Shown: positions 16,056 to 53,317, counted from the stretch's first letter. The stretch is DNA of 53,317 nucleotides from an uncultured Caulobacteraceae bacterium (GCA_964395875.1 CAYNCS010000002.1:1-53317), one strand, 5' to 3'. Notes: generated by a model not told the origin, from the sequence alone. A program made the numbers and translations.

Positions 16056-16057
16056 CC

Positions 16058-21843: not shown

Positions 21844-21865
21844 GCATCCAGGCGGAGAAAATGTC

Positions 21866-23820: not shown

Positions 23821-24089
23821 AGTGGCGCGGGAATGGGCGGCGCTTCGGCAATCGCCTCTCGACTCAAACAATGGTTTTGGCATTCCGCGGCGGTGGGCCT
23901 AGCTGTGTGGGTGGGCGGATGGCGCTGGGCGCATCTTGTCGGCAATTACGCCTCGCGCGGGACAGGACCTAGGTCGGGCCGCAATGATCGTGATAGGTGA
24001 AGGGTGAAGAAAGCGGGCGCTCCCTCCATGACATCAGTGCGGACCTCTCTGACGGCGCGGCGCACTCTGATTCTCCGGTGCTGACTCAC

Positions 24090-27645: not shown

Positions 27646-27731
27646 CTGAATTCAGGCTACGGCCTGTCTATAAGTAGCGCGTTTTCCACGCTGCTCATAG
27701 CGATCAATGAAGCGATTGCCCAGCGTCCGGC

Positions 27732-28511: not shown

Positions 28512-28616
28512 TGTGGTCACCGGCAAATGCAAGTGGAATGGTGAGAAAGTAACGTTCTGAACCGGCAAAATAAAACACAAGAGAACCAGAAGCTACCGGC
28601 GCCTTGGAGACCGCGC

Positions 28617-30858: not shown

Positions 30859-31014
30859 CGTCGGTGGACGGAAAAAACCTATACCATGGGTATAACGTAA
30901 CCATCACAGCGTAAAATACGTTCGCGCTGGCCGCGTGAAACAGCGCGCTTCTGGATAGCCTTGCTTGTTTGGTCCCCCTGATATCGATAGGTGAGGGCGA
31001 CGGGGGGCAATCAA

Positions 31015-37439: not shown

Positions 37440-38349
37440 AATCAGGGTTGGCTGGCGGTTGCGCTTTGGGCGACACGTCATGGCGCGCCAGAAACGACAG
37501 GATATCGCCGAGAATTGGTGCGTTCGATGCGATGGGCAGTCCACCGAAGGCGTCGCGCGTATCGCTGTGGCTGACGGACGGATACAAGATGGCCTCCGCC
37601 TCGCCGCCTTTTTCCCGGACCCTCTTCGCCGCTTCCGGGGAGTTCGACGGTCCGGCCGCGCGATCGTCGGCGCCGACCAACAAAAGCAAAGGCGGAGAGC
37701 GTCCGTCGATATGCGCGTAGGGCTCGGTATAGTCTCTGCCTTCACCGAAAATCGCATGCTCGCGGTCTCCATCGAGCGGCATCATGCTGTACGGTCCCGA
37801 AAGGCCGATGACGGCTTTCACGTCGTTTTTCGGGTCCAGGCCCTCCGCGTCGAGCCAGCGGCGGTCAACGGCGAGACTGAACACGTTGAAGGCGCCGGAA
37901 GAATGCCCCACCAGCACGATCTTGTTGGGATCACCGCCATATTGAGCAATTTTGCGATGCGTCCAGGCGACCGCCGCAGCGTTGTCTTGGAGGAAGAGGG
38001 GCCACAGGCCTTCGGGATAAATGCGATAGTCCGGGATCACTGCGACGAAGCCGCGCCGGGCGAGAGATGCGCCGATCCAGGCGCTTTCTTCCTTGCTGCC
38101 TGAAGCCCAGGCGCCCCCATATATGTAGACAATAACGGGGGCGTCGCCGTCGCCGGCATTTGGAGAATAGACGTCCAGCGACTGCCGCGGTCCGGCTGCA
38201 TAGGCGATGTCGCGCGTGATGTTTAAATCGTGCGTCGACCCAATCGATAAATTGTGGTCGATCTCCGGCTCCGGCGTGCGCCTACAGCCTCCGGCGGACA
38301 TCGCAAAAAAGGCGGTCAGCAGGCAGATCACGGATCGGCGAAGCATCAA
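37414..38349 (-). CDS. Lipoprotein alpha/beta-fold esterase (carboxylesterase/lipase fold-3 type)
   Basis: Lipobox FFAMSAGGC. Oxyanion-region VIVYIYGGAW. Nucleophile elbow LVGHSSGAF. Its 3' end overlaps the convergent GT-C gene by 26 nt. Confidence 0.8.
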   Translation of the reverse strand: MMLRRSVICLLTAFFAMSAGGCRRTPEPEIDHNLSIGSTHDLNITRDIAYAAGPRQSLDVYSPNAGDGDAPVIVYIYGGAWASGSKEESAWIGASLARRGFVAVIPDYRIYPEGLWPLFLQDNAAAVAWTHRKIAQYGGDPNKIVLVGHSSGAFNVFSLAVDRRWLDAEGLDPKNDVKAVIGLSGPYSMMPLDGDREHAIFGEGRDYTEPYAHIDGRSPPLLLLVGADDRAAGPSNSPEAAKRVREKGGEAEAILYPSVSHSDTRDAFGGLPIASNAPILGDILSFLARHDVSPKAQPPANPDSTLEQGRP

Positions 38350-38564: not shown

Positions 38565-40958
38565 ATGCCGGTGGGGAAAGGAAGACTGAGCGCCATCGGC
38601 CACAAGGCGGCCACGGCTTTTTATTGGCTTCTGGCGGCCGCCGTGTTCGGAAGCGGCGCATTGCTCGGCGGATTGGGCGCGAAACTCGCTGCCGCCGGCG
38701 GCAGCCTGTTTTATGCCTTGTCCGGCGTCGTCCTGATCGCGTGCGGCGTTCAATTGATGCGAAAGCGCGCATCGGCGACGCATCTGGCGATCCTCAATTT
38801 TGCGATGACTTGGGCATGGGCGCTCTGGGAGGTGGGGCTGAACGGCTGGGCCCTTCTGCCGCGCGTCAATCTTGTTTGCATTCTCACTCCGCTGATTTTT
38901 CTAAGCGCCATCCAGAGCCGGCTGTACGAGGACTGGCGCAATGCCGCCGCCGTCCGGATGCGCAAGGTCTTTCCGGCGGCCTCCGCAACCTTCGTGGCGA
39001 TCGTGATTGCGGCGGTGGCGCTTCTGGGATGGCGCGGTGCGCAGGGCGTGCGGCCGGTTGCTGAAATCCAGAAAGCGGCGCCGATCCAGCAACGCACGGA
39101 CTGGCCATATTTTGGGCAGGACCCCGGTGGGACGAAGTTTTCCTCGCTCCGCGAGATCGATCGGACAAACGCGGGTCAGCTCCGCCAAATCTGGGAACAC
39201 GTCGAACCCCGCCCGACAGGCGCGGGCGAAACTGTTGCGCGCAAGGATGAAGCGACGCCAATTCAGGCGGATGGGAAACTGTTCGTGTGCCGGCCGGACA
39301 ACGTCATTCTGGCGCTGGACGCGGAAGACGGGCGCCTGGTCTGGCGTTACGAGCCGCACACGGACCTGACCGGCGTCAAAAGCGCGGTCTGCCGGGGCGT
39401 GGCGTATTGGGAATCGCCGTCAAAGACCGGCGCCTGCGCGAAGCGCATTCTCACCGCCACGGTGGACGCGCGTCTGATCGCGCTCGACGCTGATGATGGA
39501 AAACCGTGCGCGGATTTCGGCGAAGGCGGAGCGGTCTCGCTCAAGGCCGGCCTGGGCGCGTTTGATCCCGGCCAATATTACGTCACGTCGCCGCCCGCGG
39601 TCACGCATGGCGTCGCAATCGTCGGCGGTCTGGTTCAGGACAACGTCGCCAGAAAACTGCCGTCCGGCGTGGTCCGGGCTTTTGACGCGGGCACGGGAAA
39701 GCTGATCTGGGCCTGGGACATGGGGCGTGCGGGGAAATCTCGGGCGCCGCTGGCCCCGGACGAAATCTTCACGCCCGGCACGCCAAACGCCTGGTCGATC
39801 CTCACTGTCGATGAAAGCCTAGGATTGGTGTTTCTGCCGACAGGAAATGAAACGCCCGATTTTGTTGGAACGGGCCGGCTGGAAGCGTCGGAAAAATATT
39901 CCAGCTCGATCGTCGCGCTTGATGCAAAGACCGGGGACGTGCGCTGGTCGTTCCAGTTCGTGCACCACGACCTTTGGGATTATGACGCGTCGGCGCCGCC
40001 GGCGCTGTTCGACATGCCGGGCGCCAATGGCCCGATCCCTGCGCTCGCCGCCATCGGCAAGCACGGCGTCTTTTTTGTTCTCGATCGCAGAACGGGCGTG
40101 GCCGTTTCCAGCGTGAAGGAGCAGCCGGCGCCGCAGACCGACGTTCCCGGCGAATGGTCCGCGGCGACGCAACCGGACTCGCCGGACATGCCCAAGCTTG
40201 CAGGGGCGCCCCTGCGCGAACGCGACATGTGGGGCATCAGCCCCTTCGATCAATTATGGTGCCGGTTGGAATTCCGGAAGCTGCGGTATGACGGCGCGTT
40301 CACGCCGCCGTCGCTGCGCGGCTCGATTCAATATCCGGGCCTCGCCGGCGGCGCCGATTGGGGCGGCGTGGCCATTGACGGCGAGCGGAACCTGCTTTTC
40401 GCACCATCCTTCAATATGGCGTCCGTCGTGCAGCTCCTGCCGCGCGACGCCGCGGCGAAAGGCGCGAAATTCTCGGACGAGCAGGCCGGCACGCCTTTTC
40501 TGGCGAATGTGAACTGGTTCATCACGCGGCTGGGCGTGCCATGCCAGCAGCCGCCTTACGGTATGCTGAATGCGATCGATCTGCGCACGAAGACGCTGGC
40601 CTGGAGCATTCCACTCGGCACGGCGGAGGAACTCGGGCCGCGTGGGATCGCCTCGCATCTGCCCTTCACCATCGGCGCCGCGCCCATGATCGGCGGCCCC
40701 ATCGCGACCGCCGGCGACGTCGTCTTTATCGGCGCGACGGGAGACAGGCGGCTGCGGGCGATCGACAGCCTGACGGGACGCGTTCTGTGGTCGCAGAAAC
40801 TGCCGCAGGGCAATCAGGCCACCCCGATCACCTATCGGGCGCCGCGCTCTGGCCGGCAGATGGTCGTAATGGTCTCCGGCTCTTACGGCCGGCTAAACGA
40901 CACGGCGATCCTGCCGACCCATATCATCGCCTATGCTTTGCCGGAGAAGACGCGATGA
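38565..40958 (+). CDS. Membrane-bound PQQ-dependent dehydrogenase (glucose/quinate/shikimate dehydrogenase family)
   Basis: 797 aa. Five N-terminal TM segments, then a quinoprotein beta-propeller (WPYFGQDPGGTKFS, repeated W-containing propeller motifs, DLWDYD). Confidence 0.9.
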   Translation: MPVGKGRLSAIGHKAATAFYWLLAAAVFGSGALLGGLGAKLAAAGGSLFYALSGVVLIACGVQLMRKRASATHLAILNFAMTWAWALWEVGLNGWALLPRVNLVCILTPLIFLSAIQSRLYEDWRNAAAVRMRKVFPAASATFVAIVIAAVALLGWRGAQGVRPVAEIQKAAPIQQRTDWPYFGQDPGGTKFSSLREIDRTNAGQLRQIWEHVEPRPTGAGETVARKDEATPIQADGKLFVCRPDNVILALDAEDGRLVWRYEPHTDLTGVKSAVCRGVAYWESPSKTGACAKRILTATVDARLIALDADDGKPCADFGEGGAVSLKAGLGAFDPGQYYVTSPPAVTHGVAIVGGLVQDNVARKLPSGVVRAFDAGTGKLIWAWDMGRAGKSRAPLAPDEIFTPGTPNAWSILTVDESLGLVFLPTGNETPDFVGTGRLEASEKYSSSIVALDAKTGDVRWSFQFVHHDLWDYDASAPPALFDMPGANGPIPALAAIGKHGVFFVLDRRTGVAVSSVKEQPAPQTDVPGEWSAATQPDSPDMPKLAGAPLRERDMWGISPFDQLWCRLEFRKLRYDGAFTPPSLRGSIQYPGLAGGADWGGVAIDGERNLLFAPSFNMASVVQLLPRDAAAKGAKFSDEQAGTPFLANVNWFITRLGVPCQQPPYGMLNAIDLRTKTLAWSIPLGTAEELGPRGIASHLPFTIGAAPMIGGPIATAGDVVFIGATGDRRLRAIDSLTGRVLWSQKLPQGNQATPITYRAPRSGRQMVVMVSGSYGRLNDTAILPTHIIAYALPEKTR

Positions 40959-41077
40959 CGAAACAGGCGTCATGGACGGCAAATAGCTGGAATCAGGCGA
41001 AAGCGGATGACGAACGCCGCCGCGGCGTGATTGTGAACGGAGAGAAGAATACGGAGCTTCACGCATGGCGCGGTTGA
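40955..41077 (+). CDS. Possible 40-codon linker ORF (MTKQASWTANSWNQAKADDERRRGVIVNGEKNTELHAWRG)
   Basis: Its ATG overlaps the dehydrogenase stop (ATGA at 40955-40958) and its stop lies 13 nt inside the next gene. No homology evidence; it could be fortuitous. Confidence 0.2.
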   Translation: MTKQASWTANSWNQAKADDERRRGVIVNGEKNTELHAWRG

Positions 41078-41859
41078 GCGTCTTCGCCAAAGGCAATGTC
41101 GATGTGCACGATTCCCTGCATTCGTGCGTCATTGGCGGCCAATTGCACTGGAACGGGATCAACGACATCCTGCGCAAGCGGCATCCAGGCACGCTCATCC
41201 GCCTGAAGCATGAAACCTTCGTCCGGTCGGACGCGCTGCTCGCGGCTGACGGCCAGGTTCCGGCGGAGCTGGCGAACCGGGATCTGCCTTTGGGGTCCTA
41301 TCCGGCGCCCATGCAATTCAGCACGGCGCTCTTCGACTTCAAGGCCGACGTCTATGTGCTGTCGATCATGCCCGACGTCGCGACGTGTCCTCTGAAACAC
41401 AAACAGACCGGCTTCATGTTCTATCCGAACGACGTGACGGCATGGCCGGCGGCCGACCGCGAATGGCTGCGGAGCGAGTTCGAATCCTTGCCGCTGATGG
41501 ATGTGCAGACCTCGATCGAAAACATCGAGCGCATCATCAACAAAATCCGCGAGACTTCCGAGGCGCCGATCCTGATCTACAATATGTCGCCGATCGTGCC
41601 GGGGCCGATCGTGCATTGTCTGGCCGGGCTTGGTGAAACTTTTGCAACGCGCATCCGGCGGTTCAATCTTGCGCTGGCGGAATTGTCCGAACGAACGGGG
41701 ATTTCCATCGTGGACGTGGATGAGATTCTCGCGCGGGCCGGGGCGGATTCGCTCAAGGTGGACGCGATGCACCTGGCGCCCGAGGCCTATCGGCTCATCG
41801 CCGAGGAAGTCGTGCGCGTGCTGGAAGACCTGTACATTCTGGAACCACCGGCGGATTGA
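41065..41859 (+). CDS. SGNH-like hypothetical protein, paralogue A
   Basis: 264 aa with high GC3 in this frame. C-terminal block RIRRFNLALAELSERTGISIVDVDEILARAGADSLKVDAMHLAPEAYRLIAEEV (SGNH block-V-like DxxH). No signal peptide. The opposite-strand ORF 41059..41883 is Arg/His-rich shadow. Confidence 0.6.
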   Translation: MARLSVFAKGNVDVHDSLHSCVIGGQLHWNGINDILRKRHPGTLIRLKHETFVRSDALLAADGQVPAELANRDLPLGSYPAPMQFSTALFDFKADVYVLSIMPDVATCPLKHKQTGFMFYPNDVTAWPAADREWLRSEFESLPLMDVQTSIENIERIINKIRETSEAPILIYNMSPIVPGPIVHCLAGLGETFATRIRRFNLALAELSERTGISIVDVDEILARAGADSLKVDAMHLAPEAYRLIAEEVVRVLEDLYILEPPAD

Positions 41860-41875
41860 GGCGCGGAAGCGGACC

Positions 41876-43132
41876 ATGAGCACCTACACGCGCGCGCCCG
41901 GCTACAAACCCAAAACCGATGAGCGGTTTCGCGCCGCGCCAGAGGCGGAGATCGTCGATCTGTTGTTGCTGGTCAGCGGCGTGTTCGACTTGGAGGCCAA
42001 GGGCCGCGCCGCCGCTGAGGAAACCGTGAAAGCGGCGATCGAGCGCTGGATCGGCGCGGGCCTGGGTTACCGCGCGGCGCCGGGCGGCGGACGCCTGTTC
42101 GATCCGGCGGAAGTGATCAACTTCATGAAATGGCGCGGCGTCGCGGGCGAGGATTCCTATTGGCGCGAGCATTTCGTTCAGACGCACCGCGATTTTGTCG
42201 ACGAGTTCAAAGGCCGTGCGCGGACCCCGCGCCGCTTCGACTTTACATTCCGGCGGGCCTTCGATTTGTCGGGGTTTGAGGAGGGCGCGAACCTGCGCCT
42301 GCGCATGCCGGTTCCGCTGACCGAGCCCTATTTGCGTGAACTGCGCAGCGATTTCGCGGTCCCGGAGGAATGGCGTGACGCCGCGGCCGTCCGGGACAAT
42401 TATGTCGAGCTGCGCTTAAAGAAGGGCGCTGAGCCAAGCCTGACGCTCGGCGCCGAATACGCGTTCACCGCCGGGTTCCAGTCGCCGGACGCTTTGACCG
42501 ATCGCGAGCGCGAAACCTATCTGAAAAAGTCCGAAGGCTTCATCCGCGTCACGCAGCGCATCGAGGCGCTGGCGGCGGAACTCGACGCGGGCGACCCGCG
42601 CGCTACTCTGGCGGCCATCTGGGATTACATGATGAATGCGCTGTATTCCGGCATGGTGCGGTATGCGCATATCCCGCCGGAGGCGCCGGGCGATTTTGTA
42701 CTCGAACACGGCTGGTACGATTGCCAATTGGGCGCGGCGCTGTTCGCATCGCTCTGCCGGGCGCGGGGTGTTCCGGCGCGGCTGATCAATGGCCATCTCC
42801 TGTATCGAACGCAGCCGATCAGCCATTATTGGGCGGAAGCGTGGATCGACGGCGAGGGCTGGCTGCCCTTCGACGTCATTGCCTGGGATTTGTCGATGGC
42901 GGGCGAGGATCTGGAGTGGCGCGATCTATTCGCCGGCGCGATCGACTACCGTTTTGTGACGCAGTGCTTTCCAACGGCTTTTACCGGTCCAATGAGCGTC
43001 CGGTTTCCGCCGGCCTGGCATATGCTGCAAAAACGGGCGGGCGCGGGCGTGGAAATCACCTATCAGGACGTCGACACGGGGGCGATCCTGTATCAGGACT
43101 ATGCGGAAGCGCGGGATCGCGGCGCAGGTTAG
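41876..43132 (+). CDS. Transglutaminase-like (papain-fold Cys-His-Asp) protein
   Basis: Start at ATG 41876; the ORF-track start at 41630 lies inside the previous gene. Core GWYDCQLGAALFASLCRARGVPARLINGH...HYWAEAWIDGEGWLPFD carries the Cys, His and Asp in canonical spacing. Confidence 0.75.
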   Translation: MSTYTRAPGYKPKTDERFRAAPEAEIVDLLLLVSGVFDLEAKGRAAAEETVKAAIERWIGAGLGYRAAPGGGRLFDPAEVINFMKWRGVAGEDSYWREHFVQTHRDFVDEFKGRARTPRRFDFTFRRAFDLSGFEEGANLRLRMPVPLTEPYLRELRSDFAVPEEWRDAAAVRDNYVELRLKKGAEPSLTLGAEYAFTAGFQSPDALTDRERETYLKKSEGFIRVTQRIEALAAELDAGDPRATLAAIWDYMMNALYSGMVRYAHIPPEAPGDFVLEHGWYDCQLGAALFASLCRARGVPARLINGHLLYRTQPISHYWAEAWIDGEGWLPFDVIAWDLSMAGEDLEWRDLFAGAIDYRFVTQCFPTAFTGPMSVRFPPAWHMLQKRAGAGVEITYQDVDTGAILYQDYAEARDRGAG

Positions 43133-43313
43133 ACGAGCCGTTTTTCCGCACCACACACGCAACAAGAGATTCTATTCGTATACGTCGAGACAAGAGACGC
43201 TGAATTGTGCAGCAGGCGCTCAACCGGCCCGTCATGCGCACACAATATTGAATCCGTCTCGGTCGCGAGCTAGAGCACTGATACAGAATTGCCGCGCGGG
43301 CTTGGGGTTTTGC

Positions 43314-43682
43314 ATGATCTATGAGTTCAAGTTGCCGTCGATCGTGGCCCAGATGACGGGCGCCACCATCGAATGTCTGCACGCCAAGCCAGGCGAAGCC
43401 TTGAAGATGGGCAGCAAATTGTTCGACGTCAGCGTCGACCTCTCGAGCGCCTTCGCCCAGGAATGCCCGCCGATATCATTCTTTAGGGTTGTGATGCGCG
43501 AGCCGGGCTATCTCAGGAAAATCGAACTCACGCCCGGCCAGTTCTGCAAGTTGGATGAAGTGATGGCGGTGTTCAGCACCACGCCCGACGAAGACTTGAG
43601 TGCGCCCGCCGCGCGTCCGGTCCGCACCACCGTCGCCGGCATCGTGCACCATGACGGCATGTATACGGGGAGCGTCCGCTAA
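43314..43682 (+). CDS. Lipoyl/biotinyl-domain-like protein lacking the modifiable lysine
   Basis: 122 aa from ATG 43314. MIYEFKLPSIVAQMTGATIECLHAKPGEALKMGSKLFDVSVDLSSAF aligns with the lipoyl protein on the other strand (MIYKLLVPAAVPGVEEIRVMEWHGEPGAEFQAGDLIVELETHKAVV), but the E-T-x-K motif is replaced. Both share the ...AVFSTTPDED / AIFSDTPDEP ending. Confidence 0.55.
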   Translation: MIYEFKLPSIVAQMTGATIECLHAKPGEALKMGSKLFDVSVDLSSAFAQECPPISFFRVVMREPGYLRKIELTPGQFCKLDEVMAVFSTTPDEDLSAPAARPVRTTVAGIVHHDGMYTGSVR

Positions 43683-45046
43683 TGGGCCTCGACATTCGCC
43701 TCGGACCATTGCGGGCGGATGGCTTCAACATCATGCGTTCGGGCGTGCGCTGGCTGTGCGAGCCGGGCCAGTATTGCCGTCCGAACCAGATTTTCGCGTA
43801 TTGCAATCTGACGCTGGAGCCGACGGGCGGCCGCCTCGCCGGTCCGTCGCCGTTCGCCGAAGAGCTGGAGCTGCAGATCGGCATCGCATCGCGCGTCGGC
43901 GGCCGGGTCTTTGCGAACGCCGAAGCCGCGCGCGGCGGCTATCTCAGCATCCGCTCCGTCGATCTGTGGGACCCCGACTACGTCGTTGCGACCTTCGAGC
44001 CCGAGGACGGCGCGGGCATTTCTGACGCTTCTTCGCGCGCACGTCTCCTGGCGCTGGCCGGCCGGCGCATGACCGATCTGGCCGATACGCATTCCGGCCT
44101 TTTGCCCGGATGGCATGCACGCAGCCGCGGCTGGTGGTGCGATGAAGGCGAAACGCCGCTGACATTGCTGGCGCTTGGCGTGTGCGACGTCACCGGCGTG
44201 ATGCTGGGCGAGGAATGCGCGTTCTTCGAAATGTTCGAAAGCGTGCCGCAAGCCGCGCAAATGGTCGTGGTGCCTGATCATCCTCTGGCGCCGGCTGTGC
44301 CGGTTTTGCTGGATCAATTGCGCCGCACGCCCGCGCAATTCGATGCGCTGTCCGAAGACCTGCAGAGTTTCTTTGCGCGCCCGAACGTCAAGCCCACGCC
44401 GAACGATCTTTCGTTTGCGGGCATCATGCTGTCGATGATGCAGCGCAATCCGATCCGCGAGAATTACAGTGTCTTCACGCCGCGCGGGTTGTTGAGTCTC
44501 GGCCCGGCGGACGCGGTTTTGCTGTCGCTCGCCGTCGAGCCGACCTCGATCCTGCGGCACAAGAAGCTCGGCTGTCACGTGCATATCATGCGCCACCACC
44601 AGACGGCGGCGGGTCCGGCCATGCGCGCATGGCTGTCGGAAGCGTTCGAGCCGGTGAAGCGGTCGATCAGCGACATCAAGCGCGACTACGAAACCATGAT
44701 CGACTCCATCGCGCGCACCACAGGCGGCCGGGTCATCGTGCTCAACCGCATGTCGACGTCCGGCCACGAAGACATTTCCAACTACATGGCGTTCGACGCG
44801 CCGATGAGCGACACGCTCACCTACATCTCCGCCAAGGAAACCAATCTGATGCTGGAAGACATCGCGGCGGAGCGCGAAATCTACATCATCGACGTTGACG
44901 CAATCGCGGCGGACGTCGGCGGGGCGGAGCACCTGCCCGACGGCATCCATCAGAGCGGCGAAATGCAGACCCTGTTGCGGCAGGAATTGCGCGCGGCGCT
45001 CGACCAGATCGGCCAGAGCGCGGCGCGGACCGCAGCGGTCAGATAA
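43682..45046 (+). CDS. Two-part hypothetical protein: N-terminal Lys-less lipoyl-like segment plus C-terminal SGNH-like domain (paralogue C)
   Basis: Its ATG shares 1 nt with the preceding stop (TAATG). N-terminus GVRWLCEPGQYCRPNQIFAYCNLTLEP fits the lipoyl-domain pattern but without the Lys. C-terminus ISAKETNLMLEDIAAEREIYIIDVDAIAADVGGAEHLPDGIHQSGEMQTLLRQEL. The opposite-strand ORF 43679..44950 is shadow. Confidence 0.6.
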   Translation: MGLDIRLGPLRADGFNIMRSGVRWLCEPGQYCRPNQIFAYCNLTLEPTGGRLAGPSPFAEELELQIGIASRVGGRVFANAEAARGGYLSIRSVDLWDPDYVVATFEPEDGAGISDASSRARLLALAGRRMTDLADTHSGLLPGWHARSRGWWCDEGETPLTLLALGVCDVTGVMLGEECAFFEMFESVPQAAQMVVVPDHPLAPAVPVLLDQLRRTPAQFDALSEDLQSFFARPNVKPTPNDLSFAGIMLSMMQRNPIRENYSVFTPRGLLSLGPADAVLLSLAVEPTSILRHKKLGCHVHIMRHHQTAAGPAMRAWLSEAFEPVKRSISDIKRDYETMIDSIARTTGGRVIVLNRMSTSGHEDISNYMAFDAPMSDTLTYISAKETNLMLEDIAAEREIYIIDVDAIAADVGGAEHLPDGIHQSGEMQTLLRQELRAALDQIGQSAARTAAVR

Positions 45047-45341
45047 CGTCGAATTCGATTTTCAGATCGGAAAAGTCGTCGCCTTCGGGCAGCGGCTCGT
45101 CGGGCGTGTCGCTGAAAATCGCCAACACCAGACCGATGGCGCACCAATCGCCCGGCTCGGCGTTCACCTTGCGCAGAAAGCCGGGTTGCCCGGCGCGCGC
45201 CTCGACAACCGCTTTGTGCGTCTCCAGTTCGACGATCAGGTCCCCCGCCTGAAACTCGGCGCCCGGCTCGCCATGCCATTCCATGACGCGAATTTCTTCG
45301 ACGCCGGGCACAGCCGCGGGCACCAGCAATTTATAGATCAT
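45039..45341 (-). CDS. Free-standing lipoyl-attachment (biotinyl/lipoyl carrier) domain protein
   Basis: About 100 aa. GDLIVELETHKAVVEARAGQPGFL matches the lipoyl-lysine hairpin (E-T-x-K-A). ATG 45341 is preceded by GGAG (the ORF-track GTG is at 45350). It lies 25-35 nt downstream of the E1-beta gene. Confidence 0.75.
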   Translation of the reverse strand: MIYKLLVPAAVPGVEEIRVMEWHGEPGAEFQAGDLIVELETHKAVVEARAGQPGFLRKVNAEPGDWCAIGLVLAIFSDTPDEPLPEGDDFSDLKIEFDVI

Positions 45342-45375
45342 TCCCCACACTCCATCTGGACGTTTCTTCGCAACG

Positions 45376-46362
45376 TCACCGCGACACTAATTCCCGGATC
45401 GCCTGCGCCACGCGTTGCGGATCGGGCAGGCAGGCGGGTTCCAGGACAGGATTCGAAGACACCGGTGCGGGCACGGCGCCGATACGCACCCAGGGGCGCG
45501 GGCCAATGCGCTCAAACACACGGGCCATAACCTCCACGCCGACGCCGGTCGTGGTCTGGCCTTCCTCAAGCGTCGCCAGGCGGCCGGTCTTTTCAACCGA
45601 ACGCACCACCGTGCCCACATCCATCGGGGCGAGGCTGCGCAAATCGACGACTTCGCAAGATATGCCTTCCTCGGCGAGCAGCTCCGCCGCCTGCAGCGCC
45701 ACGCGCGTGATGAAGCCGTGCACGCTGATCGTGACGTCGGCCCCCTCGCGCCGCACGATCGCTTCGCCGAACGGAATTGCAAATTCCTCCACCGGCACTT
45801 CACCCGGCGTCGGGAACAGCTTTTTGTGGTCGATGAACACAACGGGACCGTCGCAACGCAGCGCCGTCTTCATCAGGCCATAGGCGTCGGCGGGCGTGGA
45901 CGGCGCGACGACCTTCAGGCCCGGCACGCTCATCAGCCAGGCTTCAATGCATTGGGAATGCGCTACGCCCTGGCCCGCGGCGCCCGCCGTCGTCTTCACG
46001 ACCAGCGGCGCCGTCAATCGGCCATTGGTCTTGTAGCGGAGCTTCGCGGCGTAATTGATCAGCGGATCGAAGCCGAGCATCAGGAAGTCCATATAGGTGA
46101 TGCTCACCAGCGGGCGATAGCCGAAGGCCGCCGCGCCCGCGCCAATCCCGATGCTGGCGTTTTCCGAAACCGGCGTATCGCGCACGCGCTCCGGCCCGAA
46201 TTCGGTGAAGATTCCATCGAACTCCCGATAGGAGCCGCCGAACGAGCCGACGTCCTGACCCATCAGCAGGATGCGCGGATCGGCGCGCATTTCCTCGCGC
46301 ACGGCGCGCGCGATCGCTTCGCGGAAAAAAATCTTCTTTGTGGCGGGCGGATTACTCGACAT
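45376..46362 (-). CDS. 2-oxoacid (pyruvate/acetoin/branched-chain) dehydrogenase E1 component, beta subunit
   Basis: Start at ATG 46362 (MSSNPPATKKIFFREAI...). Transketolase-like pyrimidine-binding and C-terminal domains (LLMGQDVGSFGG, RVRDTPVSENASIG, GVAHSQC, LKVVAPSTPADAYGL). Confidence 0.9.
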   Translation of the reverse strand: MSSNPPATKKIFFREAIARAVREEMRADPRILLMGQDVGSFGGSYREFDGIFTEFGPERVRDTPVSENASIGIGAGAAAFGYRPLVSITYMDFLMLGFDPLINYAAKLRYKTNGRLTAPLVVKTTAGAAGQGVAHSQCIEAWLMSVPGLKVVAPSTPADAYGLMKTALRCDGPVVFIDHKKLFPTPGEVPVEEFAIPFGEAIVRREGADVTISVHGFITRVALQAAELLAEEGISCEVVDLRSLAPMDVGTVVRSVEKTGRLATLEEGQTTTGVGVEVMARVFERIGPRPWVRIGAVPAPVSSNPVLEPACLPDPQRVAQAIRELVSR

Positions 46363-47284
46363 GGTCGAGCACTCCGGCCGGATCTGGGTACGGCGAGGCG
46401 TCGGCGAAGGCGAGCGCGGCCGCTGCGCCATCCGCCGCTTCCTTCTCCAGCGCCGCGAAGTCATCGACGCTCAGGTTCAGGCGCGCCGCGATCTTCTTGA
46501 TGGGGCAGAATTCCCGCAACGCCGCCAGTTCAGCACGCGAGCGTGTTTCGCGCGCGGTGGTGGAGTGCGAGCGCAACCGGATGGAGATGCATTCGACGAA
46601 AGCCGGCCCGGCGCCGTTTCGCACGTGATCGACCGCCTCCTTCATCGCCGCTGCGACCGCTTCCACGTCGAGGCCGTCCACGGTCTTTGACAACAATCCG
46701 AAGGTTGCGCCTAGGTCGGAGAGTTTTTTCGGCGCCAGCGCGTCTGTGCGCGCCACCGACACCGACAATTGGTTGTTGTTGCAGACGAACAGCAGCGGCA
46801 GCTTCCAGTTCGCCGCCATGTTCAGGGTTTCATGCAGCGCGCCCGCGCCGCAGGCGCCGTCGCCGAACATGATGACGACCACGCCGCCGTCTTTTTCCAT
46901 CTGCTTGGCGAGCGCGATGCCCGCCGCGATGCTGATATTGCCGCCGACCACGGCGTGTGCGCCGAAGAAGCCAGCGGACGGTTCCGAGAAATGCCCGCGT
47001 CCCGCGCGGCCTCCATTAAAGCCCGCAACCTTGCCCAGCAATTCCGCCATCATGCCGCCGGGATCGACGCCGCGCGCCAGAGCCGGCCCGATCGAACGGC
47101 CGCCCGTCAGCAATTGATCGCGTTCATCCAGAACGGAGGCCAGGCCGACCGCGACCGCTTCTTCGCCCGAGGACAGCAACTGGAATCCGTGATCCTTGCG
47201 TTCGGACAGCGCCGTCTCAAACGCGCGAATGCGCATCATGGCGCGCAGGGATTCATGCAGGTCAATTACCGTGGACATGCTCAT
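46352..47284 (-). CDS. 2-oxoacid dehydrogenase E1 component, alpha subunit (TPP-binding)
   Basis: TPP motif GDGACGAGALHETLNMAANWKLPLLFVCNNN. 310 aa. Overlaps the beta-subunit gene by 11 nt. Confidence 0.9.
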   Translation of the reverse strand: MSMSTVIDLHESLRAMMRIRAFETALSERKDHGFQLLSSGEEAVAVGLASVLDERDQLLTGGRSIGPALARGVDPGGMMAELLGKVAGFNGGRAGRGHFSEPSAGFFGAHAVVGGNISIAAGIALAKQMEKDGGVVVIMFGDGACGAGALHETLNMAANWKLPLLFVCNNNQLSVSVARTDALAPKKLSDLGATFGLLSKTVDGLDVEAVAAAMKEAVDHVRNGAGPAFVECISIRLRSHSTTARETRSRAELAALREFCPIKKIAARLNLSVDDFAALEKEAADGAAAALAFADASPYPDPAGVLDHVE

Positions 47285-48162
47285 CTCTGCGGCTGACGCT
47301 GACGGAAGAGGCGGGACACGCCCTGCGCCAATAGAATCACGCTTTCTTTGGCGCCGCGATTGCGGATCGCCTGGTTGAGGCGATGAAAGGCTTCCTGCGG
47401 ACCGATGCGGCCGTTCAGCACCTGTCGCACCAGCCAGCCCACGTGATTTTCCTGCACGGTGTCGGTGACCGTGGCCGCCATCTGCCGGCGCCGGCCCTGG
47501 CCCATGGCCACGACGTCGGACAATTTGATGTCGGTCGCCAGACCGGCGGCGGGTTTGTGCGCCTCAAGAAATGCGCGCGCGGAATCCTGGATTTCAAAGG
47601 AGGCGAGGGCGTCCAGGGCGTTGGCGGCGACGCAGGTCGCGATCGCGTTGGCGGCGTGATCCACGACGACGGCGCCGCCGAGGCGATAATCGGTCTGCAG
47701 CCGGCGGCCGCCGATGTCCGCGAGTATCCGGTCAAGGTCGATCACGAAGCAGCCATACTCACGCGACATTTCCGCCGCCAGCAAGTTCAACCGGCGGATG
47801 CGCAGCAATCGCCGCTGGGCGTCTTCCTCCGAGGGCGGAACATGGCGCAGGATCGTGCAAAGGAAGACCGGATCGCCCGCTCCGCTCAACGCTTCGCAGG
47901 TCTGACGCAATTGCGCTTCCGCTTCAGACCAGAGCGTATCCAGCTGATCCAGCGCCGGGATCAGCGAGACGATTGTGATCGCGCCGTCGGCGGGCGCGTC
48001 CTGAAGGGCGGCGGCCTCCGGCGCAACGCTGATTTCGGCGCGCCAATCTTCGGTTGAGGCTTGCTTCAGCGCATCACACAGCAGGAGTCCCGCGCGGCCG
48101 ACGATCGCCTGCTCCTGGGGCGGGACGGCGGCGCGAATCCTGATCGTGTGCGCTTCGCTCAT
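47281..48162 (-). CDS. SGNH-like hypothetical protein, paralogue B
   Basis: 293 aa. LLRIRRLNLLAAEMSREYGCFVIDLDRILADIGGRRLQTD is collinear with paralogues A and C. 4-nt overlaps with both neighbouring genes. Confidence 0.6.
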   Translation of the reverse strand: MSEAHTIRIRAAVPPQEQAIVGRAGLLLCDALKQASTEDWRAEISVAPEAAALQDAPADGAITIVSLIPALDQLDTLWSEAEAQLRQTCEALSGAGDPVFLCTILRHVPPSEEDAQRRLLRIRRLNLLAAEMSREYGCFVIDLDRILADIGGRRLQTDYRLGGAVVVDHAANAIATCVAANALDALASFEIQDSARAFLEAHKPAAGLATDIKLSDVVAMGQGRRRQMAATVTDTVQENHVGWLVRQVLNGRIGPQEAFHRLNQAIRNRGAKESVILLAQGVSRLFRQRQPQR

Positions 48163-49178
48163 GCGCTCTCCAGCGCGTAGCGCATGTGGGCTGCGCGCAC
48201 GGCGTCCCGTCCGAGGATGCCCTTGCAGCGTTCAGCTGCGGCGGCGAGGTCGGCCAGGGAATGCAGCCGCGCCGCTTCGGGCAGGGTCGTCGATTCGCTG
48301 AGGCTGTCCCACAGGACCGCCATCAAGGCGACTTCGGGCAGCGGGTGTTCGGCGTAAAAGATGTTTTCCCACTCCGGCTCGTGCAGCGGGTCGCGCCAGC
48401 CGCTTCGGTGAGTCATGTGGTACGTGCGGCCGGTGCAGCCGGCCATGCGCAGACCATTCGCACACAGACGAAGCGCCAATTCACGATGCTCGTTGATCGT
48501 GATGGCGGGATGAAAGCCGCCGCTGGACAGAAAGGCCTCGCGCGACAGCGACTGATTGGAGCCGGACGCCGCGCACCACAGCACGGGATTGTCCGGCTCG
48601 GACATCAGCGCGTCCATTTCCATCTCGAACAATTTGCGCGGACCGAAGCCGGGATAGATGCCGCCCTGCCCGCGCTTGTCGACTGCGGGAAAGTCGGTGC
48701 GGATCTGTTCCCGAGTGACGCGGTTCCGCGCCAGTTCGTTTGCGCTCATGCGGGCGACGCGGGCTTCCTCGCCCGGCATCGGCGTGCCGGTTTCGGGGTC
48801 CTGGAACGACCGTGTGCAGCGCAGATGATAGGTTTCGCCCCGCACCACAAGATGGGGCGCGCGCCGGTGCTGCTCCATATGGCGCTCGACAAGGTCCGGT
48901 GCGGCCAGCGTGTCGCCGTCGAGGAAGATGACGATCTCGCCCGACGCCAGATTGGCCCCGGCGTTCGCGGCGCCGGAGCGGCCGGCGGGTTTGTCATGAT
49001 GGATCGGTGCGAGATCCATCGCGCCCTGCATTTCAGCGATGACGGCGCGCGTGTGATCGGACGAGCCGTCATTGACGACGACGACCTGCGCCGGCTCCGT
49101 CTGATGCGCGAGGGACGTCAGCGTCAGACGCAGCCGATCCGCTTCATCTTTCGATCTGATCACCACGCTGGCGCGCAT
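48159..49178 (-). CDS. Glycosyltransferase family 2
   Basis: MRASVVIRSKDEADRLRLTLTSL..., VVVVNDGSSDHT, DxD at IFLDGDTL. ATG 49178 is preceded by GGGGGAA (the ORF-track start at 49286 is TTG). Confidence 0.8.
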   Translation of the reverse strand: MRASVVIRSKDEADRLRLTLTSLAHQTEPAQVVVVNDGSSDHTRAVIAEMQGAMDLAPIHHDKPAGRSGAANAGANLASGEIVIFLDGDTLAAPDLVERHMEQHRRAPHLVVRGETYHLRCTRSFQDPETGTPMPGEEARVARMSANELARNRVTREQIRTDFPAVDKRGQGGIYPGFGPRKLFEMEMDALMSEPDNPVLWCAASGSNQSLSREAFLSSGGFHPAITINEHRELALRLCANGLRMAGCTGRTYHMTHRSGWRDPLHEPEWENIFYAEHPLPEVALMAVLWDSLSESTTLPEAARLHSLADLAAAAERCKGILGRDAVRAAHMRYALESA

Positions 49179-49689: not shown

Positions 49690-49765
<76 letters not shown>

Positions 49766-49880: not shown

Positions 49881-50348
49881 TTACAGGTCTTCGTCTTTTT
49901 CGCCGATATCCCCGATTTCCTCTTCGAATTCGTCGTCATCGTCTTCGAGGAACGGAACGGAATCGTCGTCTTCAGCGTCTTCGACTTCGACGTCGGCTTC
50001 CGAGAAACCTTCGCCCAGATCCTCTTCCTCACCGGCGACGGTATCGTCGTCGTCGTCGATCAGCGTGCCTTCCGGCGCGTCGTCGGCGACTTCCTCAAGC
50101 TCCGCCGCCTCGACTTCTTCGTCGTCAGGCGCCGCCGCTTCTTCGTTCTCCGGCGCCTCTTCGTCGTCAGTGGCCGGGTCATAGGCGCCGGCGCGGGTGG
50201 CCTTCACGCGGCGGGTGCGAAAGACCTCGTCGCCTGGGTCAAAGGTGAACGCGCATTTAGGGCACACCGCCGGGCGGCGGGTCAGGTCATAAAACTTGGC
50301 TCCGCATTGCGGGCAGGTTTGTTTTTCGCCGACATCAATCTTGGGCAC
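49881..50348 (-). CDS. Zinc-ribbon protein with long acidic tail (FYDLN_acid / TIGR02300-like)
   Basis: N-terminus CPQCGAKFYDLTRRPAVCPKC, followed by a ~100-aa Asp/Glu-rich tail. Divergent from aroA. Confidence 0.8.
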   Translation of the reverse strand: MPKIDVGEKQTCPQCGAKFYDLTRRPAVCPKCAFTFDPGDEVFRTRRVKATRAGAYDPATDDEEAPENEEAAAPDDEEVEAAELEEVADDAPEGTLIDDDDDTVAGEEEDLGEGFSEADVEVEDAEDDDSVPFLEDDDDEFEEEIGDIGEKDEDL

Positions 50349-50428
50349 GGGCTATCCGACGATCCATGTGAATGGGCGCGACCGCTTGCCACGTTCGCAG
50401 CGCCCTGTCAAAACCCCGCGAACCCAAA

Positions 50429-51805
50429 ATGACGATTTCAGCCAATCCTATCGCCGCCGCGGCGGCGCCCTTCTCGTCCAAGTCCTCTTCGGGCCTGCGC
50501 GGCGTAGCCGCTGCGCCGGGCGACAAGTCGGTGTCGCACCGGGCTTTGCTGCTGGGCGGGATGGCAGAAGGCGAGACGGCGATCACCGGCCTGCTGGAAA
50601 GCGACGATGTTCTGAACACCGCCAAGGCGGTGGCGGCCCTGGGCGCGGAGGTGACGCATCTCGGGCCGGGCGCCTGGCGGGTGCGGGGCGTCGGGGCCAG
50701 GGGCTTCTCAAGTCCGGCCCAGACCCTGGATTTCGGCAATTCCGGCACCGGCTCGCGCCTCGCCATGGGCGTGGTCGCCGGCTATCCGATCGCGGCGACG
50801 TTCGATGGGGATTCCTCATTGCGCGGCCGGCCTATGGAGCGCGTTCTGGCCCCGCTGCGCCTGATGGGCGCCGAGGCGGAGACCGCGCCGGGCGGCAAGC
50901 TGCCGCTGACGTTGCGCGGCCGGAAAGCCTTGAAAGCCATTGAGTTTGCGCCGCCCCAGGCTTCCGCCCAGGTGAAATCCGCGATCCTTTTGGCCGGCCT
51001 GCATGCGGACGGGGTCACGCTGGTGGATGAAAGCCACGCCACGCGCGACCACTCTGAAAACATGCTGCGCGGCTTCGGCGCGCGCGTGGAGACCGAGGCG
51101 CTTGGACTGCGCAGGCTGGTCCGGATTTGGGGCGGGGCGCAGCTGAAGGGCCAGACCATCGCCACGCCCGGAGATCCCTCCTCGGCGGCGTTTCTGGTGG
51201 CGGCCGCCTTGTTGATCCCGGGCTCTGACGTCCGGGTGACCGGCGTGATGCTGAACCCGACGCGCACCGGCTTGTTCGAGACCCTGAAGGACATGGGCGC
51301 GGATCTGACGATCGAAAACGTCCGCTCTGAAGGCGGCGAGCCTGCGGGCGATCTGGTCGTCCGCCATTCGGCGCTCAAGGGCGTCACCGTGCCGCCCGAG
51401 CGCGCGCCGTCGATGATCGACGAATATCCGATCCTGTCGGTGATCGCCAGCTTCGCCGAGGGCGAGACGCGGATGTTGGGCGTGCACGAATTGCGGGTGA
51501 AGGAAAGCGACCGCATCGCGTTGTCGATGGATGTGCTGCGGGCGGCGGGCGTGACCTGCGCCGACGGTCCGGACGAATTGATCGTGCAGGGAAAGGGCGC
51601 CGGGGGCGTCGAGGGCTGGGGCGTCAAGGACGCGCTGCCCACGCACGGCGATCACCGCATCGCGATGTCGGGCCTGGTCCTGGGGCTGGCCAGCAAGAAG
51701 GGCGCGCGCGTCGCCGAGGCGGACATGATCGCCACCTCGTTCCCGGATTTTTTCGACCGCATGGAGAGCCTGGGGGCGGTTTTCGCTGAAAGGCCGGGCG
51801 TTTGA
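50429..51805 (+). CDS. aroA: 3-phosphoshikimate 1-carboxyvinyltransferase (EPSP synthase)
   Basis: APGDKSVSHRALLLGGMAEGET, LDFGNSGTGSRL, VKESDRI, HGDHRIAMS motifs. Start chosen at ATG 50429. Confidence 0.9.
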   Translation: MTISANPIAAAAAPFSSKSSSGLRGVAAAPGDKSVSHRALLLGGMAEGETAITGLLESDDVLNTAKAVAALGAEVTHLGPGAWRVRGVGARGFSSPAQTLDFGNSGTGSRLAMGVVAGYPIAATFDGDSSLRGRPMERVLAPLRLMGAEAETAPGGKLPLTLRGRKALKAIEFAPPQASAQVKSAILLAGLHADGVTLVDESHATRDHSENMLRGFGARVETEALGLRRLVRIWGGAQLKGQTIATPGDPSSAAFLVAAALLIPGSDVRVTGVMLNPTRTGLFETLKDMGADLTIENVRSEGGEPAGDLVVRHSALKGVTVPPERAPSMIDEYPILSVIASFAEGETRMLGVHELRVKESDRIALSMDVLRAAGVTCADGPDELIVQGKGAGGVEGWGVKDALPTHGDHRIAMSGLVLGLASKKGARVAEADMIATSFPDFFDRMESLGAVFAERPGV

Positions 51806-52440
51806 GCGCCCCGCTCGTTATCGCTATCGACGGGCCGACGGCCTCGGGCAAAGGCACGATCGCCCGCCGTCTGGCCGCGATCTTCGGTCTGCCCTATCTG
51901 GACACCGGCTCGCTTTACCGGGCTGTGGCCTTGGCTAGGCTGGAGGCTGGCGGGGCGCTGGAGGACGAACAGGCCGCTGAATTGGCTGCGGCGACGCTCG
52001 ATCCCGAGGCCATCGATCCCAATAAAATTCGCTCGGCCGAGGCCGGCGCGGCGGCTTCGGTCGTCGCGGCCATGCCAAAGGTCCGGACGGCGCTGTTGAA
52101 GCTGCAGCGGGATTTCGCCGCGGCCCCCGGCGGCGCGGTGCTCGACGGCCGGGACATCGCCACCGTGATCTGCCCGGAAGCGCCGGTTAAGATCTATGTG
52201 ACGGCCAGCGAGGACGAGCGCACCCGCCGCCGTCTGAACGAGCTGAACGCCGCGGGCGGCGCGTTTTCCTTCGATCAAGTCCTGGCGCAGGTCCGGGCCC
52301 GGGACGACAGGGACCAGAACCGGGCCGTCGCCCCCGCCATGCGGGCCCCTGACGCGCACTTGCTCGACACCACCCTTCTCGATATAGAAGCCGCCGTCGA
52401 ACAGGCGCGCGCGATCGTTGAAAAGGCGATGGCGCGCTAG
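51802..52440 (+). CDS. cmk: Cytidylate kinase
   Basis: P-loop IAIDGPTASGKGT. 212 aa. TTGA start/stop overlap with aroA (TTG start at 51802). aroA-cmk-rpsA synteny. Confidence 0.9.
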   Translation: MSAPLVIAIDGPTASGKGTIARRLAAIFGLPYLDTGSLYRAVALARLEAGGALEDEQAAELAAATLDPEAIDPNKIRSAEAGAAASVVAAMPKVRTALLKLQRDFAAAPGGAVLDGRDIATVICPEAPVKIYVTASEDERTRRRLNELNAAGGAFSFDQVLAQVRARDDRDQNRAVAPAMRAPDAHLLDTTLLDIEAAVEQARAIVEKAMAR

Positions 52441-52570
52441 GGCTTTTAGGCCCCTTCTTCGGCAATCGATCTTGTCGGGCGTCTGCCCGGCCCATGGTGG
52501 GCCGGAACGGACGCCAAGACCGCCGGACACAACCGGCTGGCCCTAACGACACAATTTGGAGACGTTATTA

Positions 52571-53317
52571 ATGGCTGATGCAGCCCCGCGCCGCGAGGAT
52601 TTCGCGGAACTTCTGGAAGCCAGCTTCCACTCCCGCAATATTCAAGAAGGCAAGGTTCTCACCGCCCGCGTGGCCGGGATCGAGAACGACTTCGTCATCG
52701 TCGATGTCGGCCTGAAGACGGAAGGGCGCATTCCGCTGCGCGAATTCTCCGCCGACAATCGCCAGCTGAAAGTGGGCGACGACGTTGAGGTTTATCTGGA
52801 CCGCATTGAAAACGCTTTGGGCGACGCGGTCATCTCTCGTGAAAAGGCGCGCCGCGAAGAAGCCTGGACGCGCCTTGAAAAGTCTTTCGCCGCGAACGAG
52901 CCGGTCAACGGCACGATCGTCGGGCGCGTGAAGGGCGGCTTCACCGTCGACCTCGGCGGCGCCTCGGCCTTCCTGCCGGGCTCGCAGATCGACATCCGTC
53001 CGGTGCGCGACGTCGCCCCGCTGATGCACGTCGAACAGCCCTTCTCGATCCTGAAAATGGACCGTCCGCGCGGCAATATCGTGGTGTCCCGCCGCGCCGT
53101 GCTGGAAGAATCCCGCGCCGAACAGCGCGCCGAAATCGTCGGCCAGCTGCAGGAAGGCGAAATCCGCGAAGGCGTGGTCAAGAACATCACCGATTACGGT
53201 GCGTTCGTGGACCTCGGCGGCATCGACGGCCTGCTGCACGTCACCGACATGAGCTACAAGCGCGTGAACCACCCTTCGGAAGTGATCGCCATCGGCGACA
53301 CGGTGAAGGTGCAGATC
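52571..53317 (+). CDS. rpsA: 30S ribosomal protein S1, 5' part (runs off the window)
   Basis: The ATG at 52571 reads MADAAPRREDFAELLEASFHSRNIQEGKVLTARVAGIENDFVIVDVGLKTEGRIPLREF, with successive S1 motifs. The frame stays open to the window end, so it is absent from the ORF track. ORF 52568..53272 (-) is its shadow. Confidence 0.9.
   Translation, partial: MADAAPRREDFAELLEASFHSRNIQEGKVLTARVAGIENDFVIVDVGLKTEGRIPLREFSADNRQLKVGDDVEVYLDRIENALGDAVISREKARREEAWTRLEKSFAANEPVNGTIVGRVKGGFTVDLGGASAFLPGSQIDIRPVRDVAPLMHVEQPFSILKMDRPRGNIVVSRRAVLEESRAEQRAEIVGQLQEGEIREGVVKNITDYGAFVDLGGIDGLLHVTDMSYKRVNHPSEVIAIGDTVKVQI

Follow-up and report, generated by a model that had tools for sequence, protein, structure and literature searches.

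Here we describe a cluster of nine genes in a 53,317-nt stretch of DNA from an uncultured Caulobacteraceae bacterium (GCA_964395875.1, CAYNCS010000002.1:1-53317); the whole stretch is referred to as the window. The cluster occupies positions 41065-49178 and is organized in two convergent operons. It encodes both subunits of an E1 component of 2-oxoacid dehydrogenase type, a stand-alone lipoyl carrier and a paralogue of this carrier, SGNH-like proteins, a transglutaminase-like protein and a family 2 glycosyltransferase (GT2). The gene set recurs in other genomes and may constitute an acyl relay that is independent of coenzyme A (CoA).

The plus-strand operon starts with the gene of SGNH-like A (41065-41859, 264 aa), a protein with a predicted SGNH fold in which the block I serine is replaced (KGNVD). 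This gene is followed by that of the transglutaminase-like protein (41873-43132, 419 aa), by a gene for a 122-aa paralogue of the lipoyl carrier that lacks the lysine (43314-43682; termed Cys carrier in the following) and by a gene for a 454-aa protein (43682-45046), the signature protein of the cluster, which has a beta domain at its N terminus and an alpha/beta region behind it. The latter two proteins have no Pfam match; the Cys carrier was recognized by hhalign alignment to the lipoyl protein. On the minus strand the GT2 gene comes first (48159-49178). It encodes a soluble protein of ~339 aa when read from the ATG at 49178; the longest open reading frame (ORF) reaches 49286, and homologues align only from residue ~34-40 of this long ORF. 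Downstream follow the genes of SGNH-like B (47281-48162, 293 aa), a paralogue of SGNH-like A with an extra C-terminal domain, E1 alpha (46352-47284, 310 aa), E1 beta (45376-46362, 328 aa) and the lipoyl carrier (45039-45341, 100 aa).

The cluster genes are translationally coupled. On the minus strand, the GT2/SGNH-like B and SGNH-like B/E1 alpha junctions each consist of an ATGA overlap, E1 alpha and E1 beta overlap by 11 nt, and 34 nt separate E1 beta from the lipoyl gene. On the plus strand, a gap of 181 nt lies between the transglutaminase-like and the Cys-carrier genes, and the latter is joined to the 454-aa gene by a TAATG overlap. The 3' ends of the two operons overlap by 8 nt (45039-45046). 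The ORFs, their overlaps and the convergent overlap of the terminal genes, all part of the original prediction, were thus reproduced from the ORF list and the junction sequences. The GC content at third codon positions of the nine ORFs (0.73-0.82) resembles that of genuine genes of the window. None of the nine proteins contains a hydrophobic segment and all are therefore likely cytoplasmic. The 181-nt gap contained no element conserved among the 36 loci compared. An Rfam search found only tRNA-Ala, and hence no riboswitch, and a scan for promoters and terminators gave a result no better than that for shuffled sequence.

Protein families encoded by the cluster

E1 alpha matched the Pfam family E1_dh (188.7 bits) and E1 beta matched Transket_pyr (131 bits) and Transketolase_C (95.7 bits), all above the curated cut-offs. 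In NCBIfam, E1 alpha reached 249.5 bits with TIGR03182 (pyruvate dehydrogenase (PDH) E1 alpha 'y'), which is below the equivalog cut-off of 393.85, and E1 beta reached 297.6 bits with PRK09212, likewise below the equivalog cut-off. Sequence searches of the PDB aligned E1 alpha with human PDH E1 alpha (6e-35) and E1 beta with E1 beta chains (1e-70 to 1e-51). By sequence, the pair groups with the heterotetrameric type found in PDH, acetoin dehydrogenase and branched-chain 2-oxoacid dehydrogenase. The translations contain the thiamine diphosphate motif GDG-X26-NN as well as the histidines SHS (alpha) and HSQ (beta), which we take to be those used in reductive acylation. Thus, the E1 looks competent for reductive acylation.

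The 100-aa lipoyl protein matched Biotin_lipoyl (34.5 bits, cut-off 22.1) and its best NCBIfam matches were the lipoyl domains of AcoC, SucB and PdhB. The acceptor lysine in its ELETHKA motif is invariant in 38 of 38 sequences, lipoylation itself being a prediction. Alignment of the 122-aa protein to the lipoyl proteins of the cluster by hhalign (97.3%, E 1.8e-11) points to a true paralogue. In this alignment, an 11-residue insertion (VDLSSAFAQECPPxSYYR) takes the place of the ELETHKA hairpin. Cys51-Pro52 on the inserted loop is invariant even in copies at 30% identity, and the loop cysteine was found in all 33 unique sequences of the 122-aa protein. The Cys-carrier family comprises 268 members, all of ~122 aa, and no fusion to an enzyme was seen among the best 120 of these 268 homologues. 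Among the named hosts are Gluconacetobacter diazotrophicus PAl 5 (Cys carrier ACI50542.1/CAP56451.1), Novosphingobium flavum, Komagataeibacter kakiaceti, a Bradyrhizobium metagenome-assembled genome (MAG) and Polynucleobacter. The Cys-carrier gene is always translationally coupled to the gene of the 454-aa protein.

For the 454-aa protein, neither Pfam nor NCBIfam nor PDB sequence and profile searches gave a match, and all named homologues are annotated as 'hypothetical'. The family forms 256 clusters at 50% identity (E<=1e-3) among 1.84 billion representatives. Full-length members (21-44% identity) share only ten invariant residues: G74, R129, C168, G176, H293, N355, N388, D404, G413 and H423. 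In the AlphaFold2 model (mean predicted local distance difference test score, pLDDT, of 79), the N-terminal domain is beta-rich and Cys168, within LGVCDxTG, directly follows a beta strand and precedes a helix. Residues N355, D420 and H423 correspond to the Asn, Asp and His that are kept in SGNH-like A. From the order of motifs and secondary structure elements we infer that residues ~150-454 form an SGNH-type domain with Cys168 in place of the nucleophilic serine, since this cysteine sits in the context of the GDS serine and N355 and H423 match SGNH-like A. The alignment of the N-terminal domain to lipoyl profiles was collinear and not significant (hhalign probability 3-9%). Three lipoyl-like proteins had originally been proposed; because the 454-aa N-terminus is not significantly lipoyl-like, two lipoyl-type proteins are confirmed, the 100-aa and the 122-aa protein, and the third is only possibly lipoyl-like. 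Distant homologues of the 454-aa protein (21-30% identity) were found alone, mostly on short contigs, away from the other eight genes, which indicates that the family is wider than the cluster; they provided no hint at a function. Those on L011, L013 and two Joint Genome Institute (JGI) contigs (loci other than the window are numbered with the prefix L) still keep Cys168, Asn355 and His423.

The SGNH-like proteins escape detection by Pfam: GDSL_2 matches of 30.8 (A), 24.7 (B) and 16.9 bits all stayed below the cut-off of 32.9 and covered only the C-terminal half of the profile. The AlphaFold2 model of SGNH-like A (pLDDT 86) gave 64 Foldseek matches in the PDB at E<=1e-3, the best with 7e16 (4.8e-8); the best 50 of the 64 are almost all SGNH/GDSL-family enzymes. 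The model thus predicts an SGNH fold for SGNH-like A. SGNH-like A, SGNH-like B and the C-terminal half of the 454-aa protein are paralogous (mafft; hhalign 97.8%, E 1e-12), and on this ground the fold was also assigned to the latter two. At the GDS site, SGNH-like A has an invariant K-G-N-V-D and hence no block I serine. N173, D233 and H236 are invariant, so that the block III Asn and the block V Asp-x-x-His are kept. In the alignment of the three families, SGNH-like B has neither the block I serine nor the Asn (Thr instead) nor the His (DYRL), and is probably not catalytic. Hence, of the earlier assignment of three SGNH-like proteins the fold stands, by model and Foldseek for A and by paralogy for the other two, and the notion of canonical serine enzymes does not: the serine is lost from A and B, and a cysteine may take its place in the 454-aa protein. 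The C-terminal ~90 aa of SGNH-like B (47281-47550) form a conserved extension (…NHVGWLxRQVL…RRRG…) with no family match; it is missing from short forms in L004, L012, L014 and L015.

The transglutaminase-like protein matched Transglut_core with 52.7 bits (cut-off 23). Its Cys-His-Asp triad aligns to 3isr and is invariant in nine of the nine loci aligned. Papain-like Cys-His-Asp enzymes include thioester-dependent acyltransferases such as the arylamine N-acetyltransferases and the LRAT-type enzymes. Together with the 454-aa protein and the Cys carrier, the transglutaminase-like protein is one of three cluster proteins with invariant cysteines at catalytic or carrier-like positions. The GT2 matched Glycos_transf_2 above the cut-off (78 bits); its translation contains the motifs NDGSSD and DGD and represents a GT-A domain with DxD. 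The assignments of E1 alpha and beta, the lysine-bearing lipoyl protein, the transglutaminase-like protein and the GT2 are therefore all backed by Pfam scores above the cut-offs.

Conservation of the gene set and variant clusters

A genome scan seeded on the 454-aa protein, for which the back-translated patterns were very degenerate, returned five true loci, in Gluconacetobacter johannae, Labrys okinawensis and MAGs of Sphingomonadales, Acidobacteriaceae and Stellaceae. Protein look-ups added Komagataeibacter and several metagenome contigs. The gene set recurs in shuffled order in Acetobacteraceae, Sphingomonadales, Labrys, Stellaceae, Acidobacteriaceae, Polynucleobacter and metagenomes, and thus spans at least three phyla or classes. 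All nine genes were present in eight of the first ten loci. The exceptions are L001, which is truncated where the fetched stretch ends, and L009, which has no transglutaminase-like gene and lies on a contig that stops shortly after SGNH-like A. Scanning metagenomes with SGNH-like A as the seed yielded 215 relatives. Among the metagenome loci of at least 12 kb, 22 of 25 contained the complete set, and the other three were split or cut at the contig end. The transglutaminase-like gene, SGNH-like A and the GT2 gene change their place within the cluster. Two blocks persist: A-GT2-B-E1 alpha-E1 beta-lipoyl protein, and the pair of Cys carrier and 454-aa protein, in this order. The 3' ends of these blocks nearly always face each other. 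The view that the convergent operons form a single conserved unit of function, shared beyond the strain in which it was noticed, is supported by these data.

No E2 catalytic domain (2-oxoacid_dh) and no E3 was found among the called genes of the annotated loci. Scans for the E2 motif (DHRxxDG) and the E3 redox motif detected none in operon context in the window and 95 fetched loci; these scans cover the surroundings of the cluster, and a housekeeping E3 elsewhere in the genome is possible. Whether E2 or E3 genes ever accompany the set, a check that the original prediction had asked for, can thus be answered with never for the loci examined.

The E1 itself, regarded from the outset as part of the cluster, is present in most loci and missing from two. 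The variants L012 (3486-14163 of a 15-kb contig) and L014 (5334-12347, Polynucleobacter paneuropaeus) carry seven genes, which encode the two carriers (the lipoyl protein retaining its lysine), the 454-aa and transglutaminase-like proteins, the GT2, SGNH-like A and a short SGNH-like B. Since no E1 is nearby, it is not obligatory in cis. In L012, two paralogous ANL (AMP-binding) enzymes are encoded just downstream, after a response regulator. The 454-aa homologue of this locus is extended at its C terminus by a domain of 250 aa without a family match. A further variant, L015, is a complete cluster that has diverged (30-58% identity). Here, a gene for a 670-aa protein with Acyl_transf_3 and SGNH domains (1247-3259, minus strand) is inserted between the transglutaminase-like and lipoyl genes. 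Its architecture is that of the OafA/OatA glycan O-acyltransferases. The lipoyl motif of L015 is the canonical ETDKA.

Genomic neighborhood

Immediately upstream of the cluster, a membrane-bound pyrroloquinoline quinone (PQQ)-dependent dehydrogenase of the glucose/quinate/shikimate family is encoded at 38565-40958 (plus strand). It matched PF01011 with 707.6 bits and TIGR03074 with 808.3 bits, the latter just under the cut-off of 832. Apart from the window, 11 of the 35 tabulated loci (3 of the first 10 and 8 of the 25 metagenome loci) have a PQQ dehydrogenase gene beside the cluster or within it, at varying positions. A HAD-UbiA fusion resembling decaprenyl-phosphate phosphoribosyltransferases (29287-30858, minus strand; NF006088, 570.3 bits) has counterparts beside the core in L001, L003, L006, L018 and L019. 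Two GT87 (GT-C) glycosyltransferases at 36138-37439 and 30991-32391, both on the plus strand (PF09594, 118.8 and 49.5 bits), are matched by GT87 genes adjoining the core in L003 and L006. HAD-UbiA, GT87 and DUF6798 membrane glycosyltransferase-like proteins occur together in the window, in L001 (4520-7869), L003 (2362-7002), L006 (16563-21305, with an additional EamA protein) and in L019. From its protein families, this set looks like a module for the formation and transfer of a polyprenyl-phospho-pentose donor in Gram-negatives.

A small GT2-like protein of 291 aa (35093-35968, plus strand; weak Glycos_transf_2 and HfsG matches) has homologues beside the core in L002, L003, L010 and 5 of the 25 metagenome loci. 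Further upstream, the adjacent exopolysaccharide (EPS) locus noted before was recognized at 9595-28600. It encodes a Wzx-type flippase, two GT4 proteins, two AAA_31/tyrosine-kinase-like proteins (one with Wzz and GNVR), an AMP-binding enzyme, an asparagine synthase and an NAD-synthase-like protein; a WbaP-like priming transferase follows at 32459-33301. Besides the window, L010 has EPS genes of the Wzz/Wzx/GT4 type next to its core. A BD-FAE/carboxylesterase-like protein is encoded at 37414-38349 (minus strand), where the 3' end of its gene overlaps that of the GT87 gene by 26 nt; homologues adjoin the core in L010 and L019. A multi-pass membrane protein of 423 aa without a family match (33540-34811, minus strand) has a homologue with 43% identity beside the core in L010. 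In L007 and L008 the core was found without any of the PQQ, HAD-UbiA/GT87, small GT2 and EPS neighbors.

On its other side, the cluster is bordered by a tRNA-Ala(GGC) gene (49690-49765, minus strand). Beyond it lies the gene of a small acidic zinc-ribbon protein with an FYDLN motif (49881-50348, minus strand), followed at 50372-53317 (plus strand) by ORFs which, reading the names from the translations, we take to be aroA, cmk and the start of rpsA. The cluster seems to lie on the chromosome. Mobility genes were not noticed, and a search of a plasmid collection gave no match.

A possible acyl relay and its alternatives

We propose that the nine genes encode one cytoplasmic pathway, a thiol-based and CoA-independent acyl relay on lipoyl carriers that ends on a glycoconjugate, all steps being predictions; we give this proposal a probability of roughly 40%. 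The E1 alpha/beta pair would decarboxylate a small 2-oxoacid, most likely pyruvate in view of its nearest relatives, and reductively acylate the lipoyl-lysine of the 100-aa carrier. By transthioesterification, the acyl group could then pass to Cys168 of the 454-aa protein and/or to the cysteine of the transglutaminase-like protein, with the Cys51 loop of the lipoyl paralogue as a possible second carrier, and finally to a glycoside that the GT2 has formed. For SGNH-like A a role as transferase or editor is conceivable, for SGNH-like B that of a non-catalytic partner, and a housekeeping E3 would re-oxidize the carrier. The 454-aa protein would be a functional stand-in for E2, possibly combining a lipoyl-like N-terminus with an acyltransferase domain of another fold. 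The product probably enters the assembly of envelope or EPS glycans in many genomes.

A precedent for the loading step is found in QncN/L/M, where a split E1 and a lipoyl domain load a carrier protein for biosynthesis (PMC6335953). Circumstantial support comes from the AT3 (acyltransferase 3)-SGNH gene inserted in L015 and from the EPS, GT-C and UbiA-HAD genes that recur beside the core. To this extent, the link to glycan O-acylation that the original prediction had drawn gains support, with EPS or GT-C glycan genes next to the cluster in several genomes; the SGNH-like proteins themselves are not of the canonical serine type.

Several points weigh against the proposed relay. No E3 is linked to the cluster. 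L012 and L014 keep seven genes including the lipoyl protein and have no E1 on the contig. Known AT3 enzymes use acyl-CoA (PMC9558356), and acetyl-CoA would obviously be the cheaper donor. The place of Cys168 at the SGNH nucleophile site is predicted from motif and secondary-structure order rather than from a superposition; Foldseek with the full-length 454-aa model gave no match at E<=1e-3, but only weak alpha/beta-hydrolase matches and designed scaffolds. Finally, the recurrent PQQ dehydrogenase is accounted for by none of the explanations considered here.

The variants without E1 suggest a loading step that is either modular or provided in trans. They weaken the idea that E1 defines the system and do not weaken that of carriers and Cys enzymes as its core. 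A broader formulation, which we regard as possible but less likely than not, is that of a new kind of acyl-carrier system: a Lys carrier and its Cys-loop paralogue would exchange an acyl or other thiol-bound group, catalysis would lie with a Cys-type SGNH enzyme and the transglutaminase-like protein, loading would fall to an interchangeable module (E1 in most genomes, another one where E1 is missing), and the system would provide widespread soil bacteria with a CoA-independent donor for the modification of glycans or glycolipids.

The paired paralogous carriers, with a lysine and an invariant cysteine at the same hairpin, are also what would be expected if the dihydrolipoyl arm served as a reductant or as a sulfur or acyl shuttle for the Cys51 carrier. 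The product would then be the modified carrier itself, to which, for example, the GT2 might add an S-linked sugar or the transglutaminase-like enzyme an acyl group. Lipoyl proteins act as thiol reductants elsewhere (Lpd-DlaT-AhpD; GcvH-L/SirTM), the constant coupling of the Cys carrier to the 454-aa protein would fit, and both carriers are kept in the variants without E1. However, genes for a peroxiredoxin, a thioredoxin-like protein or a sulfurtransferase are missing from the cluster, the three SGNH-like paralogues and the AT3-SGNH insertion favor acyl chemistry, and fusions of the Cys carrier are lacking among its best 120 of 268 homologues. We therefore consider such a thiol relay or carrier maturation rather unlikely. 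Still more improbable is the synthesis of a branched sugar, in which E1 would work as a carboligase and add a pyruvate-derived two-carbon unit to a keto-sugar, the GT2 would transfer the product and the remaining proteins would tailor it. Orphan E1 alpha/beta pairs without E2 and E3 do just this in the paulomycin, avilamycin and kosinostatin clusters (PMC4802897), and a GT2 and glycan genes are at hand here as well. Yet systems of the Plm8/Plm9 type need no lipoyl protein, which leaves the invariant-lysine carrier unexplained although its gene comes after E1 beta in each of the loci with E1 in which the genes of both subunits and of the carrier were detected. Moreover, an NDP-sugar dehydratase, a ketoreductase and a nucleotidyltransferase are absent from the cluster, and the E1-less variants retain the remaining genes.

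That the cluster is a catabolic operon, with an acetoin/pyruvate-type dehydrogenase that borrows E2 and E3 and with esterases for acylated sugars, we consider very improbable. The nearest relatives of the E1 are indeed of the PDH/acetoin type, SGNH-fold proteins are often esterases, and a carboxylesterase or PQQ dehydrogenase gene is sometimes adjacent. Against this stand the biosynthetic GT2, which is always present, the loss of the hydrolytic serine from the SGNH-like proteins, the absence of a transporter, a regulator and E2/E3 from the cluster, and the likely cytoplasmic location of all cluster proteins. Any remaining probability belongs to something not yet imagined. Readings as a defence system (the PADLOC library was not scanned) and as a cluster for a peptide that is ribosomally synthesized and then modified post-translationally were also considered and were dropped because no supporting genes are present.

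Comparison with known systems places the proposed acyl relay apart from each of them. With the PDH and AcoABCL complexes, the cluster shares a heterotetramer-type E1 with thiamine diphosphate motif and catalytic histidines, as well as a lipoyl domain with a modifiable lysine. It differs in lacking an E2 CAT-like domain, a peripheral subunit-binding domain and an E3; its lipoyl domain is a free 100-aa protein, and its partners are SGNH-like, transglutaminase-like and GT2 proteins. QncN/QncL/QncM and SclQ1-4 (glycolicacyl-ACP) likewise combine a split E1 with a lipoyl domain in biosynthesis and load a carrier protein rather than CoA (PMC6335953). Qnc, however, relies on a canonical E2 acyltransferase domain, fused to the lipoyl domain, together with a phosphopantetheinyl acyl carrier protein (ACP) and feeds a nonribosomal peptide synthetase, whereas the cluster has neither E2 nor ACP; the Cys-bearing lipoyl paralogue and the Cys enzymes may stand in for them. 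Plm8/Plm9 and AviB1/AviB2 resemble the cluster in an E1 alpha/beta without E2/E3 in a glycosylation context (PMC4802897). They have no lipoyl carrier and are set among NDP-deoxysugar genes, which are missing here. SGNH-fold proteins tied to glycan genes are also known from AT3-SGNH (OafA/OatA), MBOAT-SGNH (PatA/PatB) and AlgIJFX systems, and AT3-SGNH occurs in one variant cluster. These O-acyltransferases use an acyl-CoA donor (PMC9558356), are extracytoplasmic and have a Ser-His-Asp triad, in contrast to the serine-less cluster proteins with their predicted cytoplasmic location. This contrast in serine and location, and on the proposed reading also in the donor, separates the SGNH-like proteins from them.

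Free or borrowed lipoyl proteins outside the classical complexes occur in GcvH-L/SirTM, LbpA/sHdr and DlaT-AhpD. To our knowledge, none of these joins the carrier with E1, GT2, SGNH-like and transglutaminase-like proteins, and none includes a Cys-for-Lys paralogue. A full-text literature search gave no description of the gene combination, and the profile libraries place it in no characterized pathway, in agreement with the earlier statement that no described pathway has this composition. We therefore rate the cluster as lying outside every described kind of system. No E2 of either the dehydrogenase or the Qnc type is present, E3 (dehydrogenase complexes) or ACP (Qnc) is absent, the SGNH proteins differ in serine and location, the combination does not appear in the literature, and three of the nine protein families are absent from Pfam. 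Yet all parts have known folds, and the function assigned to them is a prediction.

If the relay is correct, it would represent a new logic for activating and delivering acyl groups, with lipoyl domains serving in a role outside the classical dehydrogenase complexes. Two new catalytic or carrier types would come with it, a Cys-for-Lys lipoyl paralogue and a Cys-type SGNH enzyme. Pfam has no family for three of the nine proteins, so that even an incomplete assignment of function would annotate hundreds of genes now labelled 'hypothetical'. Acetobacteraceae (among them cellulose producers and the plant endophyte Gluconacetobacter diazotrophicus), sphingomonads, Acidobacteria and further bacteria of soil and peat commonly carry the cluster. 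What it produces may therefore be a widespread, unnoticed modification of the envelope or of EPS.

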